64,000 nucleotides of DNA from Escherichia phage phiEC1. The notes beneath the pieces were generated by a model. That model was not told the DNA's origin and searched no databases. It worked only from the letters and a program-made list of their open reading frames with translations. Position 1 is the first letter of the stretch. Every line of letters starts with the position of its first letter. This document shows, one piece after another, positions 12,953-50,750 of this stretch. The DNA lies in sequence record KY608965.1; one strand, written 5' to 3'. The position numbers and the translations under genes were made by a program.

Positions 12953-12982
12953 ATAGTATCACATACCAAATACGTTGTAAAC
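12953..12982 (-). promoter_or_regulatory. Early (sigma70-type) promoter GTTTAC-N18-TACTAT for the 89-aa ORF
   Basis: Minus-strand GTTTACAACGTATTTGGTATGTGATACTAT, about 30 nt upstream of the ATG. Confidence 0.6.
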
Positions 12983-32416: not shown

Positions 32417-33232
32417 TTAACAATTTATAGACCAAGTCCATTTGGACGAATCTAAAGGAAAGTTTTGAATCGTCCACCATGGCTGCATATCGGTTGGTCC
32501 TGGAGTTCGCCAAGTATACGGATTCGACGGAGCGCCAATTTGATTAGGCCATGCACCTGGGCTTGTTGCACCTGATTCTTTAAGCAAATCCGCCAATCGT
32601 TTTAAAAGGTCTTCACGATCTGAATCTGAATTATGCTCAGGTGGAATCAAACGAGATTCAATATCATCCCACGTGTGTACACGTTGTGCAGTGCGAGGAA
32701 TATCATCACGTTCACCACGAGCCAACCAATAAATCGGTACATTAAGAATTTCTGCCGCATGGTCACAATGATGAGCTAAATCGTCAACGTAACAAATTAC
32801 GTTATATTTTGTTTTAGCTAGTTCGAATAATTGTTCCTTTGAAGAATCATGACCACACATCATTACTTCAGAGAAAGCGCCTGGGAACAAAGCATTCAAA
32901 TTAAATTGTCTATTCAATCGAGCATCAATTGAATCACCTAGCGCCGTCACGGCTACAAAATTATAGTCTTCTTTTAGTTTATTGATAACTCGAAGAGCAT
33001 CAGAATAAGGCGCTAAGTAACGAATAAAATCAGAGCTATTATATTTTTCTATTAATTGTTTACCAAGGTTATCGTCGGTATTGAACAGTTTACCAGGAGA
33101 AATAAATTTTTCGTCCTGAATCATTTTTAAAATATGTTCTAATGGAAGATTATATTTTTGGGCAAAATAAGGAAGTCCAGATTGCCAACTTAAACATACA
33201 CCATCAATATCAGTCAAAATAGTAGGCTTCAT
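32417..33232 (-). CDS. HAD-superfamily hydrolase-like protein (30.2-like)
   Basis: N-terminal ILTDIDGV (HAD motif I DxDG[TV]); 271 aa. Confidence 0.6.
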   Translation of the reverse strand: MKPTILTDIDGVCLSWQSGLPYFAQKYNLPLEHILKMIQDEKFISPGKLFNTDDNLGKQLIEKYNSSDFIRYLAPYSDALRVINKLKEDYNFVAVTALGDSIDARLNRQFNLNALFPGAFSEVMMCGHDSSKEQLFELAKTKYNVICYVDDLAHHCDHAAEILNVPIYWLARGERDDIPRTAQRVHTWDDIESRLIPPEHNSDSDREDLLKRLADLLKESGATSPGAWPNQIGAPSNPYTWRTPGPTDMQPWWTIQNFPLDSSKWTWSINC

Positions 33233-33696
33233 AAAGAGTCTCTTAATAGGTTTAACACATCAACAAATTCAGTTTCGGTTAGTATTGTATCATCTTTTGT
33301 TAGGTGGCTAGCCATGCTGTGCTTCAAAATTTTTCCTTTAGAGGCTTGTAAGGCATCACGAAATCCCTTATTTTGGATCGCTGCTTCAAAATATGCATTT
33401 GTGTATAATTCTTTCCACGCTTCAGAGTATCTTGAAAATGGAACTCCCAACCAGAAGAGGGTCCCACGGTCCTGAGCTCTTGCATAAGACCTTCCAGCTT
33501 GTTGGGCGGCAAGCCCGGATAGTCCAAATATACGTCTTTGTTGTTCAACATTTTTCACCTTACATCCTTGGAGAAACCCTTCAAGACCTCCGAATTGAAT
33601 ACCGTCCATAACAAAAGGCCATTGAGCAAAGTTACTTAATGCACATGACGGCCACTTAAAATTACTTCTTATTTCTAATTCAGACATCTTTAACAC
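33229..33696 (-). CDS. NADAR (YbiA/DUF1768)-like domain protein (30.3-like)
   Basis: ALSNFAQWPFVMDGIQFGGLEGFLQGCK matches the NADAR signature (F/L)SNF..WP…DG…E..(F/L)Q..K seen in E. coli YbiA as recalled. Confidence 0.6.
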   Translation of the reverse strand: MLKMSELEIRSNFKWPSCALSNFAQWPFVMDGIQFGGLEGFLQGCKVKNVEQQRRIFGLSGLAAQQAGRSYARAQDRGTLFWLGVPFSRYSEAWKELYTNAYFEAAIQNKGFRDALQASKGKILKHSMASHLTKDDTILTETEFVDVLNLLRDSL

Positions 33697-33895
33697 TTAT
33701 AATTTCAACATCAGCCCAATGACCATAACCAGGTATACGATCTTCGATAGATAAATTTCCGTCATTTTTAGGTAGTTTAATCGATGTGATATACGGTTCT
33801 AAATGGTCTTCTGTATGCGGAGAAACATCTGTCACACGATAAGTAACTTCAACCATTTCCGTACCAAACAATTTCTGGATTAGTTTATTCAACAT
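33680..33895 (-). CDS. Hypothetical protein
   Basis: 71-aa ORF in the 30.x variable region, coupled to neighbours. Confidence 0.5.
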   Translation of the reverse strand: MLNKLIQKLFGTEMVEVTYRVTDVSPHTEDHLEPYITSIKLPKNDGNLSIEDRIPGYGHWADVEIISVKDV

Positions 33896-34082
33896 GTTTC
33901 AACCCTTTAATAGGAGATAACTCTTTACCCATACGTATGTCAGAAGTCCAATCAACCCATTGAACAGCATACGCTTCATTGATAATTCCAGCGGCGGTTT
34001 TAAATTCAGGGAGAACTTTAAAAATCACCCCAGGAATTCCAACACCTTTTAATTGGACTGTTTGTGCTATTAAAAATTTCAT
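33885..34082 (-). CDS. Hypothetical protein
   Basis: 65-aa ORF preceded by an early-type promoter (GTTTAC…TATAAT) about 34090-34125. Confidence 0.5.
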   Translation of the reverse strand: MKFLIAQTVQLKGVGIPGVIFKVLPEFKTAAGIINEAYAVQWVDWTSDIRMGKELSPIKGLKHVE

Positions 34083-34136
34083 ATTTTTCCACTTAGTAAA
34101 GAAATCATTATACTCTAATCCGTCCTTGGATGTAAA

Positions 34137-34751
34137 CTACTTAACGAAATTAATTTCTACCGGATGAACAACAGGTTGAGCAGTGATATATTGAGTAATT
34201 GCTTTCATGACTAGAGCTTCAGAACCAGGATTTTTCTCAACGAATTCACGTGCTTGGTTATGAGCTTCAAGTTCACTTAGTAAACCACTTCGTTGGCATC
34301 CACGGTCTTGAGTACCCTGTTCAGATAAAAAGACGACGATGTATTTTTCATCGTCATAAGATTTAGACGGTTGAGCAAATGTTCCTTTACTTCCGAAAGG
34401 AGAGTTATGACGCCACATCACGCCGTGAGGAGTTTCAACCTTCGTATATTCGTGCGGGCCATTTTTCTTAATTTCTTGATGTGGAACTTCATGGACCTTA
34501 GGGTTAGGACATTCAATAAAATGCTCGTCTAAATCGGTCGAGAATATTAAAGTAAAACAATTACTGAATTTACCAACACCTGCCTGATAAATTTTACCTT
34601 CAGAAGTTCTAATTTCACAAACTGAGCCGGCATCAGTAACTTCTAAAACTTCAAAAGGCTCGATAAGGTCATATGAGAACATGTTTTTAAGGCGTGGAGT
34701 AATATCCCCATTTTTAAAATTCATTTTATAAAAAGTATTAACTTTAAACAT
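34137..34751 (-). CDS. Hypothetical protein, 204 aa
   Basis: ORF with SD GAGGAAA; preceded by GGGAGCTTCGGCTCCC hairpin; no recognised domain. Confidence 0.6.
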   Translation of the reverse strand: MFKVNTFYKMNFKNGDITPRLKNMFSYDLIEPFEVLEVTDAGSVCEIRTSEGKIYQAGVGKFSNCFTLIFSTDLDEHFIECPNPKVHEVPHQEIKKNGPHEYTKVETPHGVMWRHNSPFGSKGTFAQPSKSYDDEKYIVVFLSEQGTQDRGCQRSGLLSELEAHNQAREFVEKNPGSEALVMKAITQYITAQPVVHPVEINFVK

Positions 34752-34786
34752 AATTTCCTCAGTGGGAGCCGAAGCTCCCAGTTAAA

Positions 34787-35152
34787 TTAGATATCGAATT
34801 CATTAAGAACTACATCAAAGATTGCTTCCAGGTGTTCAGGTTTAGCTCGGTTGCTCAGGATGTGACGAATCCAAGTTTTAACCAGAAGCTTACGATTAAC
34901 ACCGTTCCAGCAAGGATGAGTACCTAAATCACGCTGACGGAAATCGTCATCTAATGCAATTTTGAAGTTGGAACCTTCCATCGTGATTGAAACCGTGATG
35001 CCATTTTCAAATCGCATATAAACGTAATTAGGAGTCATGCACTGTTCGATTTCACATACTGAACCATTTTTATGTTTCCATAAGCAAATAACTTCAGAAG
35101 AACCAGCGATACCGTTAGAAACATATTTACGTTCGAAGTTGATGTAGTTCAT
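34787..35152 (-). CDS. Hypothetical protein, about 121 aa
   Basis: Start set at MNYINF… (SD GGAGAA 6 nt upstream); track ORF extends 21 codons further. Confidence 0.55.
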   Translation of the reverse strand: MNYINFERKYVSNGIAGSSEVICLWKHKNGSVCEIEQCMTPNYVYMRFENGITVSITMEGSNFKIALDDDFRQRDLGTHPCWNGVNRKLLVKTWIRHILSNRAKPEHLEAIFDVVLNEFDI

Positions 35153-35182
35153 TTTATTCTCCAGATGTTTAAGTTGTTTGTT

Positions 35183-35222
35183 GGTACAGGTATATAATAA
35201 CATAACCTGTACCAAAGTAAAC
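35183..35222 (-). promoter_or_regulatory. Early promoter cassette: GTTTAC-N17-TATTAT with 9-bp inverted repeat GGTACAGGT/ACCTGTACC straddling the -10
   Basis: Minus-strand AAACAGTTTACTTTGGTACAGGTTATGTTATTATATACCTGTACC directly after the upstream stop codon. Confidence 0.6.
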
Positions 35223-35226
35223 TGTT

Positions 35227-35595
35227 TTATGCAACTTTAATCCAATTGTCTAAATTTAAAACACCTTTGGCTTTCATTTTTTCGATCAGGTTATCTGCTG
35301 TAATGCGTCCATTTTGATACCATGTAACATCTTCAGAGTAACCAGTTTCTTCGTCAACATATGTTTCTGAACGAATTTTACCTGTAATAATAGTTTTTAA
35401 TTCGTATGTGTCACCTGTGAAAAAGTTTGCTAACACAATTTTCCAAGAGAAATCATCAGAAGGACCTTCAGGGGTCATACAACCTACGAACTCAAATTGC
35501 TCTTTGTATAACATCCACTGGAATTCTTTAATTTCGATAGCTTTATAACCGTCGTGGTCTTTACATTTGATGTATGAGTTCAGATTGATTTTCAT
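35227..35595 (-). CDS. Hypothetical protein, 122 aa
   Basis: ORF downstream of an early promoter (GTTTAC-N17-TACTAT at about 35637-35665). Confidence 0.6.
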   Translation of the reverse strand: MKINLNSYIKCKDHDGYKAIEIKEFQWMLYKEQFEFVGCMTPEGPSDDFSWKIVLANFFTGDTYELKTIITGKIRSETYVDEETGYSEDVTWYQNGRITADNLIEKMKAKGVLNLDNWIKVA

Positions 35596-35699
35596 TTTAT
35601 TCTCCGGTTGTTTTATTGATTAGGTGGTACAAGTCTATAGTAACACATCCTACAGGAGAGTAAACATCTTTTTTAAACTTTTTCTGCCCTAAACGCACA

Positions 35700-35722
35700 A
35701 AAGGGAGACCGAAGTCTCCCTA
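35700..35722 (-). terminator. Rho-independent terminator (GGGAGACTTCGGTCTCCC + TTTTGTG) after the 59-aa ORF
   Basis: Same hairpin family as after genes 23, 35 and 32. Confidence 0.7.
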
Positions 35723-35725
35723 AAA

Positions 35726-35905
35726 TTATGCAACAACCTTTCCAAAACGAGAAGCATCATCTCGAAGAACTGCACGTGCTCTGCGCATGATCTTCTCAAC
35801 TGTTTGATTAATACGAGAGTTCGACCCACGCTTGTATCCAGCGCGTTTAGAGGTACCATCAACTTTCTTTTCAACTGCTTTCTTTGCTTTAGCTTGTTTT
35901 GCCAT
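35726..35905 (-). CDS. Small basic protein, 59 aa (not in ORF track; alternative frame to the track ORF 35689..35874)
   Basis: Hand-translated MAKQAKAKKAVEKKVDGTSKRAGYKRGSNSRINQTVEKIMRRARAVLRDDASRFGKVVA; ATG start with AAAGAGAA SD, terminator hairpin directly downstream. Confidence 0.5.
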   Translation of the reverse strand: MAKQAKAKKAVEKKVDGTSKRAGYKRGSNSRINQTVEKIMRRARAVLRDDASRFGKVVA

Positions 35906-36068
35906 TATAAATTCTCTTTAAATGAAAATGCAGGACTTATTGACATTGCCTGCGCAAGCCCTCAAGGGGAACATAGGTTTTGGGTATTTAACGACAGGAT
36001 AACCATAAACCCGTCATCATACCTACCATGACTTACACAGCTAACCTTTTGCTGACGCATGATAGCAA

Positions 36069-36317
36069 TTATTTCAAAGTAATAACAAAATGACGAACTG
36101 CTTTGCGTGCTGCAGAAGCCAGAGGCTTAGCATATTTCAATTCATCTTTAGCTTCCAGTTCAGAAGCCAAAGTAGCCTGAGCAGGATTCAGATGTTTGAA
36201 ATATCGCAGGATTTCCAGTGCTTCGGCTTCAACATCAATTGAAGCGCCGTAGTTTTCGTGACCGTTATTCCATGCGTTGCGTTGCAGTTCAAGAGCGTGT
36301 TGTAATTGTTTAATCAT
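36069..36317 (-). CDS. rIII: rIII lysis inhibition accessory protein
   Basis: 82 aa, near-identical to T4 rIII as recalled (MIKQLQHALELQRNAWNNGHENYGASIDVEAEALEILRYFKHLNPAQ…). Confidence 0.93.
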   Translation of the reverse strand: MIKQLQHALELQRNAWNNGHENYGASIDVEAEALEILRYFKHLNPAQATLASELEAKDELKYAKPLASAARKAVRHFVITLK

Positions 36318-36441
36318 TTTAAATTCTCAATTCGAGATAATATTTAGTAGCCACGTTCGTCTGAATTTCACCTTCTTTCGACAAGTCTCTCAGTTGTAGG
36401 CTACCGCTTAGAAGAGTGTTCTCTTCATATAGTTATTTATA

Positions 36442-37140: not shown

Positions 37141-37711
37141 AAAAGTTTCGGATTTGTTCCCAATTCAGAGAACGAAGATTATTACGAGAGTACTGAATTA
37201 CTTCAATACCAGCTTGTTTTAGAATATCTGCCCAATTTTCAGGAGATCGGTCGTATAATTCTGCGTATACAACCTTTTTAATACCTGACTGCGTAATAGC
37301 TTTAGTGCAATCAGGACACGGAGAAAGCGTAGTATATAACGTAGCACCTTCAATAGAATTACCTTTACGAGCGGCAAACAAAATTGCATTCAATTCTGCA
37401 TGGATTTCATTATTAGCAGACCATGCACTATGAGCAGCTCGATGTTCTTTGGCTAAAACAAAATTATCTACCCGTCCAAATGCTGTAGTGCCTTCTTTAT
37501 GTCCAGCAACGATGACTGGGATTGGTTTATTCTTCAACCAACCATTTTCAGATGCATGTTCGCAACAGTTAACGCCACCTGCAGGTGAACCGTTATATCC
37601 AGTAGAGATAATGCGTCCATCTTTTTCAATGACGGCACCAACTTTCCATGAACAACATTTTGATTCTTGAGAAATCAGATATGCAATCTGAAGGTATGTG
37701 CTAGCTTTCAT
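37130..37711 (-). CDS. cd: dCMP deaminase
   Basis: 193 aa; zinc-binding HAE…PCPDC motifs; colinear with T4 Cd. Confidence 0.95.
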   Translation of the reverse strand: MKASTYLQIAYLISQESKCCSWKVGAVIEKDGRIISTGYNGSPAGGVNCCEHASENGWLKNKPIPVIVAGHKEGTTAFGRVDNFVLAKEHRAAHSAWSANNEIHAELNAILFAARKGNSIEGATLYTTLSPCPDCTKAITQSGIKKVVYAELYDRSPENWADILKQAGIEVIQYSRNNLRSLNWEQIRNFCGE

Positions 37712-38703
37712 TATTGAACCTTATTAATATAAGTTAACAGCTCTTTAGTTTGTTCCCAACTGATGCACGCATCGGTAACGGAAACGCCATAGGACATATT
37801 ATCAGAAATTTTTTGATTTCCTTCATGTAGGAACGATTCTATCATAATTCCTTTGACCAAATCATTAGCTGCTAAATTTTTACCAATACCAATTTGATTG
37901 CTATAATGCCCATCAGCGTTTGCATGGCTACAGTCAACCATTACATAATGATTCAGACCTACTGCCCTTGCTTTGTTAGAAGCTTCTTGAATATCAGAAG
38001 AATGATAGTTCGGGCCGTTGGTCCCGCCACGCAATACGATATGCGTATTCTGATTACCTTCAGCTTCAACAATGCCTACAGTACCATCGACGTCCATACC
38101 CATATACCGATGAGGCCAGGCGGCACTATACATCGCGTCTGTAGCTACTTTAATAGAACCATTGGTTGCGTTCTTGAAGCCTACGCACATCGGTAGACCT
38201 GAAGCAATTTCACGATGTGTCTGACTTTCAGTCGTACGGGCGCCAATAGCAACCCATGAGAAAATACCAGAAAGATACTTAATCGTGAATGGGTCTAATA
38301 CTTCAGTTGCTAATGGAAGTCCCATACGTAGAAGTTTACGACACAATGTTCGTGCAACTATAAGACCGTGGTTCATATCAAAACTTCCGTCAAGATATGG
38401 ATCATTTACAAGACCTTTCCAACCTACGGTAGTTCGAGGCTTTTCAAAATAAACGCGCATCACTAACAGAACATTAGGAAGACGAGTTTGAAGTTCAGCC
38501 AGACGTTTGCCGTATTCAACAGCAGCAATAGGGTCATGAATTGAACAAGGACCTACAACAATAAGTTTGCGTGGGTCTTCACCGTTCATAATCGAATTAA
38601 CTTGTTCGCGATGAGAAGCCACTTGTGATGCGTAAGCTTCCGACAAAGGAATAATCTCAGCCAGTTCTTTTGGAGAAATAAGTTTTCCGACGACAGGTAA
38701 CAT
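37711..38703 (-). CDS. 3-deoxy-D-arabino-heptulosonate-7-phosphate (DAHP) synthase, class I (AroG/F/H-like)
   Basis: 330 aa; LIVVGPCSIHDP, VMRVYFEKPRTTVGWKGL, IGARTTESQTHRE, GFKN, IVLRGG, SHAN, GVSVTDACISWE match E. coli AroG-type DAHP synthase blocks as recalled. Confidence 0.85.
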   Translation of the reverse strand: MLPVVGKLISPKELAEIIPLSEAYASQVASHREQVNSIMNGEDPRKLIVVGPCSIHDPIAAVEYGKRLAELQTRLPNVLLVMRVYFEKPRTTVGWKGLVNDPYLDGSFDMNHGLIVARTLCRKLLRMGLPLATEVLDPFTIKYLSGIFSWVAIGARTTESQTHREIASGLPMCVGFKNATNGSIKVATDAMYSAAWPHRYMGMDVDGTVGIVEAEGNQNTHIVLRGGTNGPNYHSSDIQEASNKARAVGLNHYVMVDCSHANADGHYSNQIGIGKNLAANDLVKGIMIESFLHEGNQKISDNMSYGVSVTDACISWEQTKELLTYINKVQ

Positions 38704-49544: not shown

Positions 49545-49793
49545 TTATTTCCTCAGATTTTTCTTAACAACTTTCCAATCAGCTTTAAACGATTCAACAT
49601 CAGAGTGGCAAATCCAGAATCCTGCGCTTTCGCCGTCTTCATAAAGTGGACATCCATCACATTCTTCATTCCAGCCCATTTCACGTAAAGCTGCTTCAGC
49701 TTGTTCAAGGAGTTCAGCATCTTTATCAAGGATGTTGAAGTACCATTTGCCTTTAACTTCAGAATCGTTAATGCTTTGGCGTTGTAATTTCAT
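49545..49793 (-). CDS. Hypothetical protein (frd.1-like), Cys-containing
   Basis: 82-aa ORF immediately upstream of frd, with early promoter cassette upstream. Confidence 0.6.
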   Translation of the reverse strand: MKLQRQSINDSEVKGKWYFNILDKDAELLEQAEAALREMGWNEECDGCPLYEDGESAGFWICHSDVESFKADWKVVKKNLRK

Positions 49794-49822
49794 TTTATTC
49801 TCCGTTGCTTCATTTGTTTTGA

Positions 49823-49859
49823 CAGGGTAATAGTATCACACCATTACCCTGTTGTATAC
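49823..49859 (-). promoter_or_regulatory. Early promoter cassette (GTATAC-N18-TACTAT) with 9-bp inverted repeat CAGGGTAAT/ATTACCCTG straddling the -10
   Basis: Minus-strand GTATACAACAGGGTAATGGTGTGATACTATTACCCTG. Confidence 0.55.
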
Positions 49860-50669: not shown

Positions 50670-50698
50670 TTTGATTTCCTCATGTTGTTGATAGGTCT

Positions 50699-50727
50699 AT
50701 ACTAACACATTCAGGGAAGAAGTAAAC
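50699..50727 (-). promoter_or_regulatory. Early promoter GTTTAC-N17-TAGTAT upstream of paralogue B
   Basis: Minus-strand GTTTACTTCTTCCCTGAATGTGTTAGTAT, downstream of the gene 32 terminator. Confidence 0.55.
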
Positions 50728-50750
50728 AACTTTTTCAGCAATTTACAGAT

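Follow-up and report, generated by a model that had tools for sequence, protein, structure and literature searches.

What are the six small open reading frames (ORFs) that separate rIII from 30.3 in Escherichia phage phiEC1 (KY608965.1), how would they be expressed, and what might their products do? They lie in a 64,000-nucleotide (nt) stretch of this phage's DNA, one strand read 5' to 3' and hereafter called the window, and a first-pass annotation had described them as uncharacterised early ORFs. We found by sequence comparison that they are already-annotated rather than newly found genes, namely the early accessory genes 30.4, 30.5, 30.6A, 30.7, 30.8 and 30.9. Our preferred reading, which we hold at a probability of roughly 0.8, is that the region is the 30.9-to-30.4 part of the Mosigvirus 'gene 30 - rIII' hyperplastic region and encodes six small, non-essential early proteins, with the regulation, cassette exchange and binder roles proposed below. 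This reading is carried by the T4 orthologues of 30.4, 30.5, 30.7, 30.8 and 30.9, a TuIa-type 30.6A, three early promoters, the terminator of 30.9, diverged copies of a 91-nt sequence, and breaks of T4 homology at the edges of cassettes and at gene starts.

Identity of the six genes

All genes of the region are on the minus strand, in the order cd, 31.1, 31, rIII, the six ORFs, 30.3 and 30.2. The six ORFs, with lengths in amino acids (aa) and isoelectric point (pI) where relevant, and the neighbouring genes are as follows.

35726..35905, minus: gene 30.9, 59 aa, pI 11.4; 96% identity to T4 gp30.9; phrog_1427, E=2.4e-31
35227..35595, minus: gene 30.8, 122 aa; Pfam PF06019 Phage_30_8, 149.2 bits (cut-off 25)
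34787..35152, minus: gene 30.7, 121 aa from ATG; Pfam PF06919 Phage_T4_Gp30_7, 174 bits (cut-off 27)
34137..34751, minus: gene 30.6A, 204 aa, two-domain; phrog_17531, E=6e-145
33885..34082, minus: gene 30.5, 65 aa; 64% identity to T4 30.5 over 64/65 residues; phrog_1690, E=2e-28
33680..33895, minus: gene 30.4, 71 aa; 52% identity to T4 30.4; phrog_2042
36069-36317, minus: rIII
Upstream of rIII, minus: gene 31, co-chaperonin
33229-33696, minus: gene 30.3, Pfam Phage_30_3
Downstream of 30.3, minus: gene 30.2, HAD-like

Every ORF that the first-pass annotation had placed here is present on the minus strand at its coordinates. Its statement that none has recognisable motifs proved inaccurate, because 30.7 and 30.8 match PF06919 and PF06019 far above the cut-offs and all six match PHROG families, albeit families of unknown function.

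The window belongs to a Mosigvirus (an RB69-like T-even phage), the genus of well-annotated relatives such as vB_EcoM_SA79RD. In a megablast search positions 33200-36400 matched 774 phage records, of which 111 covered at least 80% of the query, and the top matches were the Escherichia phages LF82-x (98.4% over the full length). Dozens of GenBank phages are 96-98% identical across the region and have all six ORFs annotated; SA79RD likewise carries annotation for each of them, including the 59-aa ORF ('similar to RB69 gp30.9').

Comparing the window ORFs by BLASTP with the T4 genes from AF158101, we found that 30.4, 30.5, 30.7, 30.8 and 30.9 match T4 genes (UniProt Q02405, Q02406, Q02408, Q00305 and P17310/Y13A_BPT4) that have the same order and strand and likewise lie between rIII and 30.3. 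T4 and the window further share the terminator of 30.9 and, at 30.7, a ribosome-binding site with GGAG. In T4, however, 30.6 and 30.5 overlap, whereas in the window a promoter separates the 30.6 slot from 30.5.

Gene 30.7 is 94% identical to its T4 counterpart, and its residues 1-120 align to PF06919 positions 1-118. The start that had been chosen for it, giving about 121 aa, is right: the ATG at 35152 is preceded by GGAG, as opposed to the 142-aa ORF that mechanical calling opens at a TTG at 35215. Gene 30.8, whose residues 2-121 align to PF06019 positions 3-123, is strongly diverged from T4 30.8 (37% identity) and 12 residues longer, and is nearer the SP18/Moon type (87% to SP18). The T4 30.7 mRNA is a substrate of RegB, which cuts it at the GGAG of the ribosome-binding site (PMC9409239). 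In the window, GGAG is found in the ribosome-binding sites of 30.7 (CUGGAGAAUAAAAUG) and 30.8 (CCGGAGAAUAAAAUG) and is absent before 30.9, 30.6A, 30.5 and 30.4.

The slot that 30.6 takes in T4 is filled by 30.6A, which has no similarity to T4 30.6 by BLASTP and is 97.1% identical over 204 aa to TuIa gp30.6A (AJ621579.1, CAF21717.1). The TuIa neighbourhood is the same, with 30.7, a stem-loop, a ribosome-binding site, 30.6A, a -35/-10 promoter and 30.5, and we see no difference of substance, except that the window has the gene in a Mosigvirus background while TuIa is filed under Tequatrovirus. The gene is rare, being found in 120 of 50,697 phage records, in two 90% clusters and in seven matches among 1.84 billion representatives; a profile search gave 21 matches, and every relative from the deep searches comes from T4-like phages and is without a name. 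Its C-terminal module (about residues 121-190) is common to proteins of 116-152 aa such as SP18 30.6A, and its N-terminal module, roughly 100 residues long, has weak matches to phrog_8920, 622, 5804 and 3710, the families of 158-170-aa genes that stand in this slot elsewhere.

Two further proposals on these proteins were rejected. A YegP/DUF1508-like C-domain in 30.6A had no Pfam support at E<=5 across 13 family members, and a paralogy of 30.7, 30.8 and the N-domain of 30.6A, suggested by shared 'GSVCEI' and 'CMTP' strings, gave BLASTP E values of at least 0.1 and an hhalign probability below 1%. In sequence and profile searches of the PDB, the best matches of 30.6A, 30.7 and 30.8 were no better than E=0.1.

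The 65-aa ORF is the positional orthologue, equal in length, of T4 30.5. The T4 protein co-purifies with host polyphosphate kinase (Ppk) and belongs to a set of three T4 proteins that redundantly activate bNACHT11, a defence protein related to nucleotide-binding leucine-rich-repeat (NLR) proteins (bioRxiv 10.1101/2024.12.17.629029); the binding of Ppk and bNACHT11 is known from the T4 protein alone. Downstream, the only Pfam match of 30.3 at E<=1 is PF08010 Phage_30_3 (231 bits), and no separate NADAR model is reported. Inside 30.3, the out-of-frame ORF 30.3' (75 aa in T4) is open at 33324-33551 on the minus strand with 81% identity to T4 30.3', a protein detected early in T4 proteomics (PMC9697503 Table S2). 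A literature search on the function of 30.4, 30.6A, 30.7, 30.8 and 30.9, for which numeric gene names were mostly unproductive queries, returned nothing.

In T4, 30.4, 30.5, 30.6, 30.7 and 30.8 are early in both RNA and protein by time-resolved omics (PMC9697503 Table S2). Furthermore, CRISPRi-ART in T4 scored 30.3, 30.4, 30.5, 30.7, 30.8 and 30.9 as 'Not Fit' and 30.6 as 'Semi-Fit' (PMC11879866 supplement), and the 'Not Fit' scores indicate genes that are dispensable on the laboratory host. Early expression, knock-down scores and a gene content that varies across nine genera thus bear out the earlier view of these ORFs as accessory genes in a plastic T-even region.

Gene 30.9 and its flanking sequence

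The smallest of the six had been proposed as a gene that the list of mechanically called ORFs misses, in a frame other than that of the listed ORF at 35689-35874. The difference in frame is real, and a comparison of orthologues from ten phages of nine genera (among them Mosigvirus, Tequatrovirus, Dhakavirus, Gaprivervirus, Jiaodavirus, Gelderlandvirus, Kanagawavirus and Moonvirus) showed that coding is conserved in the 59-aa frame. This frame is open in all ten phages, and variable sites fall at codon positions 1/2/3 in the proportion 25/19/47 over 58 aligned codons (chi-square p=0.0008), while the frame of the 61-aa listed ORF has internal stops in seven of the ten (IME281, JS10, SP18, Kp15882, S16, ZX14 and Moon). 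For these reasons the 59-aa frame was rightly picked, and comparative analysis identifies it as the true gene, the known 30.9.

The opposite explanation, that the 59-aa ORF is untranslated, the gene being the 61-aa ORF or the conservation of the locus reflecting a non-coding RNA or regulatory element, can draw on three facts: 30.9 and its 115-nt leader are unusually conserved in DNA (94% to T4), the Shine-Dalgarno sequence is weak, and mass spectrometry did not detect the protein in T4, where its RNA is early (PMC9697503 Table S2). Against these stand the open frame with its third-position variation and the interrupted rival frame described above, and Rfam gives no family over threshold in the region. 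Moreover, 18 lysines and arginines in so small a protein would give very short tryptic peptides, so that negative mass spectrometry would be weak evidence. We regard this explanation as barely credible.

In the ten phages 30.9 keeps its place directly downstream of rIII on the same strand, with its own intrinsic terminator next. The claim of a Shine-Dalgarno sequence holds only in part, with a GAG 8 nt from the ATG. The dedicated terminator that had been claimed does exist, as a hairpin with a U tract kept in all ten phages; its stems differ in sequence yet stay complementary in 10/10 through compensatory changes, and it is annotated as a terminator in SA79RD and NRG-P0074.

35694..35720, minus: intrinsic terminator of 30.9, GGGAGAC-UUCG-GUCUCCC then UUUUGUG
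35906..36020, minus: leader of 30.9, about 94% identical to T4 (homology block 35738-36020 at 94.4%)

The protein is 6.6 kDa with a pI of 11.35. Its alignment shows a variable Lys/Ala-rich N-terminal tail, an invariant SKRAGYKRGSN core and a conserved C-terminal RARAVLR helix; residues S19, K20, A22, K25, S28, N29, R42 and V46 are invariant in 39 sequences. All 65 relatives in the databases belong to T4-like phages that infect Enterobacteriaceae, and their names are uninformative. An AlphaFold2 (AF2) model has a predicted local distance difference test (pLDDT) score of 67.8, with values below 50 at residues 4-16 and of 85-91 for a helix at 30-54, and this helix is amphipathic (hydrophobic moment 0.59 compared with 0.26 +/- 0.13 in shuffles). 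The protein is thus modelled as a disordered basic tail followed by an amphipathic helix. Searches of the PDB by sequence and profile gave nothing better than E=0.1, and the helix of the model had no Foldseek match there. Given the predicted disordered polybasic tail, the invariant core and the amphipathic helix, 30.9 is therefore most likely to attach to a polyanion (RNA, ribosome or DNA) or to an acidic protein surface, a best guess suggested by its composition.

Upstream, the leader contains a small CCC-loop-GGG hairpin at 35959-35969 and a GCAGG/CCTGC hairpin at 35930-35953 followed by AUUUUCAUUU. In an alignment of 11 phages the stem of the second hairpin varies to CTGG/CCAG, GAGAG/CTCTC and GGAGC/GCTCC. 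This hairpin, together with AUUUUCAUUU, is probably a terminator or attenuator on the rIII side. The leader has no match to the T4 early, middle (GCTT-N13-16-TAnnnT) or late (TATAAATA) promoter consensus, and an Rfam scan of the region gave only sub-threshold chance matches. The initiation regions of 30.9 (35894-35916) and rIII (36306-36328) form a 23-nt repeat with 83% identity (GAGAATTTAnAATG...), a sign that the two leaders may have a translational operator or an origin in common.

The spacer between rIII and 30.9 (36021-36066 in the window, compared with L002:3204-3497 and L003:4042-4285) is polymorphic, and that of T4 is about 80 nt longer than the window's. In T4, NRG-P0074, IME281 and others the spacer contains about 80-130 nt more, including a TAATGATT-TGCG-AATCATTA hairpin, and some annotations place two tiny ORFs in this additional stretch; it is absent from the window and from SA79RD. 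Also between rIII and 30.9, an element of about 135 nt (GCGGCAAGTGCATGCTACCCCGAGG...CAACAGATAAGAG) recurs at 90-100% identity in 403 records of T4-like phages from many genera, although the adjoining proteins are just about 50-75% identical. It is mostly unannotated and is absent from the window; its sites in the compared loci, all on the minus strand, are L005:2960-3100, L006:2911-3051, L007:3000-3140, L009:2837-2977 and L010:2845-2985. Rfam gave no match for it, and the fold that RNAalifold predicts has three domains and includes two compensatory pairs; the element is a candidate for a structured RNA or a mobile-element remnant.

Promoters, hairpins and repeated cassettes

The six ORFs had been described as individually framed by early promoters and hairpins. 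Using the early-promoter cassette consensus of T4/PST, TTTACW-N17-TAYWAT (PMC4122927), in the form TTTACW-N16-18-TAYWAT, we found 11 matches over the whole window against 0.84 expected. Ten of the 11 are on the minus strand and three are in this region; the other eight exact matches are at 12953, 15796, 28288, 39090, 41216, 42621, 43804 and 60604. A generic scan for sigma-70 promoters and terminators did not rise above shuffled sequence (12 as compared with 9.3, and 3 with 1.9), and the T4-specific consensus was required.

35637..35664, minus: early promoter of 30.8, TTTACT-N16-TACTAT
35181..35221, minus: composite promoter/stem-loop cassette before 30.7, TTTACT-N16-TATTAT, promoter 35221-35194
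34765..34780, minus: tetraloop hairpin between 30.7 and 30.6A, GGGAGC-UUCG-GCUCCC, without a U tract; the 30.6A ribosome-binding site follows directly
34107..34136, minus: early promoter of the 30.5-30.4-30.3-30.2 operon, near-consensus TTTACA-N18-TATAAT, annotated in SA79RD and TuIa
35148..35238 (copy 1, 30.7) and 35591-35681 (copy 2, 30.8), minus: 91-nt regulatory cassette (promoter, leader, GGAGAATAAAATGAA), a direct repeat with 74% identity

In the cassette before 30.7, an 11-bp stem (35181-35191 / 35205-35215) spans the -10 element, with a minimum free energy of -19.8 kcal/mol (z=-3.8), and SA79RD annotates both a terminator and a promoter there; the 30.7/30.6A hairpin is annotated as a stem_loop in TuIa. 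The pattern search found no T4-type early promoter ahead of 30.9, 30.6A or 30.4, and folding of the region showed no hairpin 3' of 30.6A. Hairpins do stand 3' of 30.9, 30.8 and 30.7, and a fourth is upstream of 30.9. The claim of individual framing therefore holds for three promoters (of 30.8, 30.7 and 30.5) and three hairpins and does not extend to every gene. Indeed, 30.5 and 30.4 share 11 nt, and 30.4 reaches 8 nt into 30.3 as counted from its ATG (33687); because their reading frames overlap, the three genes form one operon, and the overlaps of 30.4 suggest translational coupling. From this layout of promoters, hairpins and overlaps we derive four units, in order of transcription: 30.9 with its terminator; 30.8 with its promoter; a promoter with 30.7 and 30.6A; and a promoter with 30.5, 30.4, 30.3, 30.2 and onwards.

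Both copies of the 91-nt cassette were recovered by nhmmer at E about 1e-24. Weaker copies lie on the minus strand at 49790-49843 (E=0.0017) and 50684-50736 (E=0.00015).

Homology to T4 is interrupted along the region. By blastn the window matches T4 in the blocks 32663-34082, 34745-35222, 35738-36020 and 36067-36413: it stops at the 30.5 start codon, returns where the 30.6 slot has its start codon and ribosome-binding site, stops again at 35222, the -35 element of the 30.7 cassette, and returns within 30.9. Among the nine genera, gene content between rIII and 30.3 differs as well. JS10 is without 30.7 and 30.8, SP18 has a T4-type 30.6 plus a 116-aa 30.6A fragment, and different 158-170-aa genes fill the 30.6 slot in Jiaodavirus, Kanagawavirus, Moonvirus and Gelderlandvirus (phages of Klebsiella, Enterobacter, Citrobacter and Salmonella).

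Promoter-early stem-loop (PeSL) cassettes have been described for the hyperplastic regions of T4-type phages (Arbiol et al. 2010, PMC2839356; Comeau et al. 2014, PMC4122927). The window promoters fit the published consensus, are associated with stem-loops, are repeated in the genome and stand at the edges of gene replacements and indels. Promoter and stem-loop are, however, fused only at the 30.8/30.7 junction. At the 30.9/30.8 junction the two are separate, with the terminator hairpin lying about 30 nt before the promoter; between 30.7 and 30.6A there is a hairpin but no promoter, and between 30.6A and 30.5 a promoter but no hairpin. By extension from the published work, the window's cassettes may serve as PeSL-type recombination points.

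Elsewhere in the window, a 330-aa ORF at 37711-38703 (minus), directly upstream of cd, has the look of a class I 3-deoxy-D-arabino-heptulosonate 7-phosphate synthase (KPRTTVGWKG motif), and its counterpart in SA79RD and O157 typing phages is annotated as Tyr-sensitive phospho-2-dehydro-3-deoxyheptonate aldolase. It would be an auxiliary metabolic gene for aromatic amino acids, and T4 has none at this position.

Proposed mechanism and alternative explanations

By analogy with T4 and published work, we propose that unmodified host RNA polymerase would transcribe these genes in the first minutes of infection and that the 30.7 and 30.8 messages would then be silenced by RegB cutting at GGAG in their ribosome-binding sites. 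The repeated PeSL-type cassettes may act as recombination points, through which single genes would therefore be swapped, lost and gained between phages. In the least certain step, the small products may work by stoichiometric binding to host macromolecules and not by catalysis, with polyphosphate kinase as the possible partner of 30.5.

Several points weigh against this proposal. The functions of the six proteins in this phage, the binder role included, are what we infer with least certainty. As 30.5 is just 64% identical to the T4 protein, Ppk binding may not transfer. The idea that 30.9 binds a polyanion comes from composition and a medium-confidence model, with PDB searches giving no structural or sequence match, and the failure to detect the 30.9 protein in T4 means that its translation rests on evolutionary evidence. 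No convincing 30.9 promoter is present, a relaxed search giving only a 9/12 sigma-70-like site at 36088-36059. Finally, since the 30.7-30.6A hairpin is without a U tract and no hairpin follows 30.6A, not every junction is a PeSL.

Could the cluster instead be an anti-defence island, as the first-pass annotation had suggested, with at least some of its six products blocking bacterial immunity? Its genes are early, small and dispensable in the laboratory host, the gene content of the region shifts with host genus, the proteins of the 30.6 slot belong to a web of families that diverge fast, and the direct contact of 30.5 with a defence protein fits an arms race. However, no inhibitory activity has been reported for any of the six, and the sole link to defence, the activation of bNACHT11 by 30.5, makes this protein a trigger and not an inhibitor, with a metabolic kinase as its host partner. 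Unlike typical fast-evolving counter-defence genes, 30.7 and 30.9 are 94-98% conserved over T4, Mosigvirus, Dhakavirus and Gaprivervirus, and PDB searches gave no similarity to any solved anti-defence protein. PADLOC, which covers defence proteins only, and NCBIfam gave no matches. An anti-defence role of the cluster is thus unsupported, and we consider this explanation doubtful. That the ORFs are functionless cargo of mobile promoter/stem-loop cassettes would agree with the missing fitness cost on knock-down in T4 (PMC11879866 supplement), with frequent loss and replacement between phages and with the repetition of the regulatory cassettes. Yet 30.9, 30.7 and 30.8 are kept in up to nine genera under clear purifying selection, 30.4-30.8 are made as proteins in T4, and 30.5 has a specific host partner, which leaves cargo a very improbable explanation.

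We also entertain, as a speculative and unlikely elaboration, that gp30.9 could be a conserved early host-takeover factor docking, through its polybasic tail and amphipathic helix, on a host polyanion or ribonucleoprotein (such as the ribosome, mRNA or nucleoid), and that the 30.6-slot proteins (30.6A and the related 158-170-aa proteins of phrog_622, 8920, 5804 and 3710) could be a diversifying family, either of host-specific binders or of factors against host defence, that phages exchange through cassette recombination.

Taken together, our preferred reading of the region as early accessory genes of a hyperplastic region places the punctuation by promoters and hairpins, noted earlier, within the published PeSL architecture of such regions in T-even phages. 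It also means that from raw sequence alone a true small gene, 30.9, and the true start of 30.7 were recovered where the longest-ORF track fails. The six genes are part of the large pool of unassigned T4 early genes, in which the sole functional lead here is 30.5, through Ppk binding and the triggering of bNACHT11. The 30.6 slot, with its web of distantly related two-domain proteins that vary with host genus, might repay work, and so might the highly conserved element of about 135 nt that some 400 other T4-like phages have between rIII and 30.9. If the docking role of gp30.9 were true, the strong conservation of 30.9 across the T-even genera that infect Enterobacteriaceae would reflect an invariant host target.

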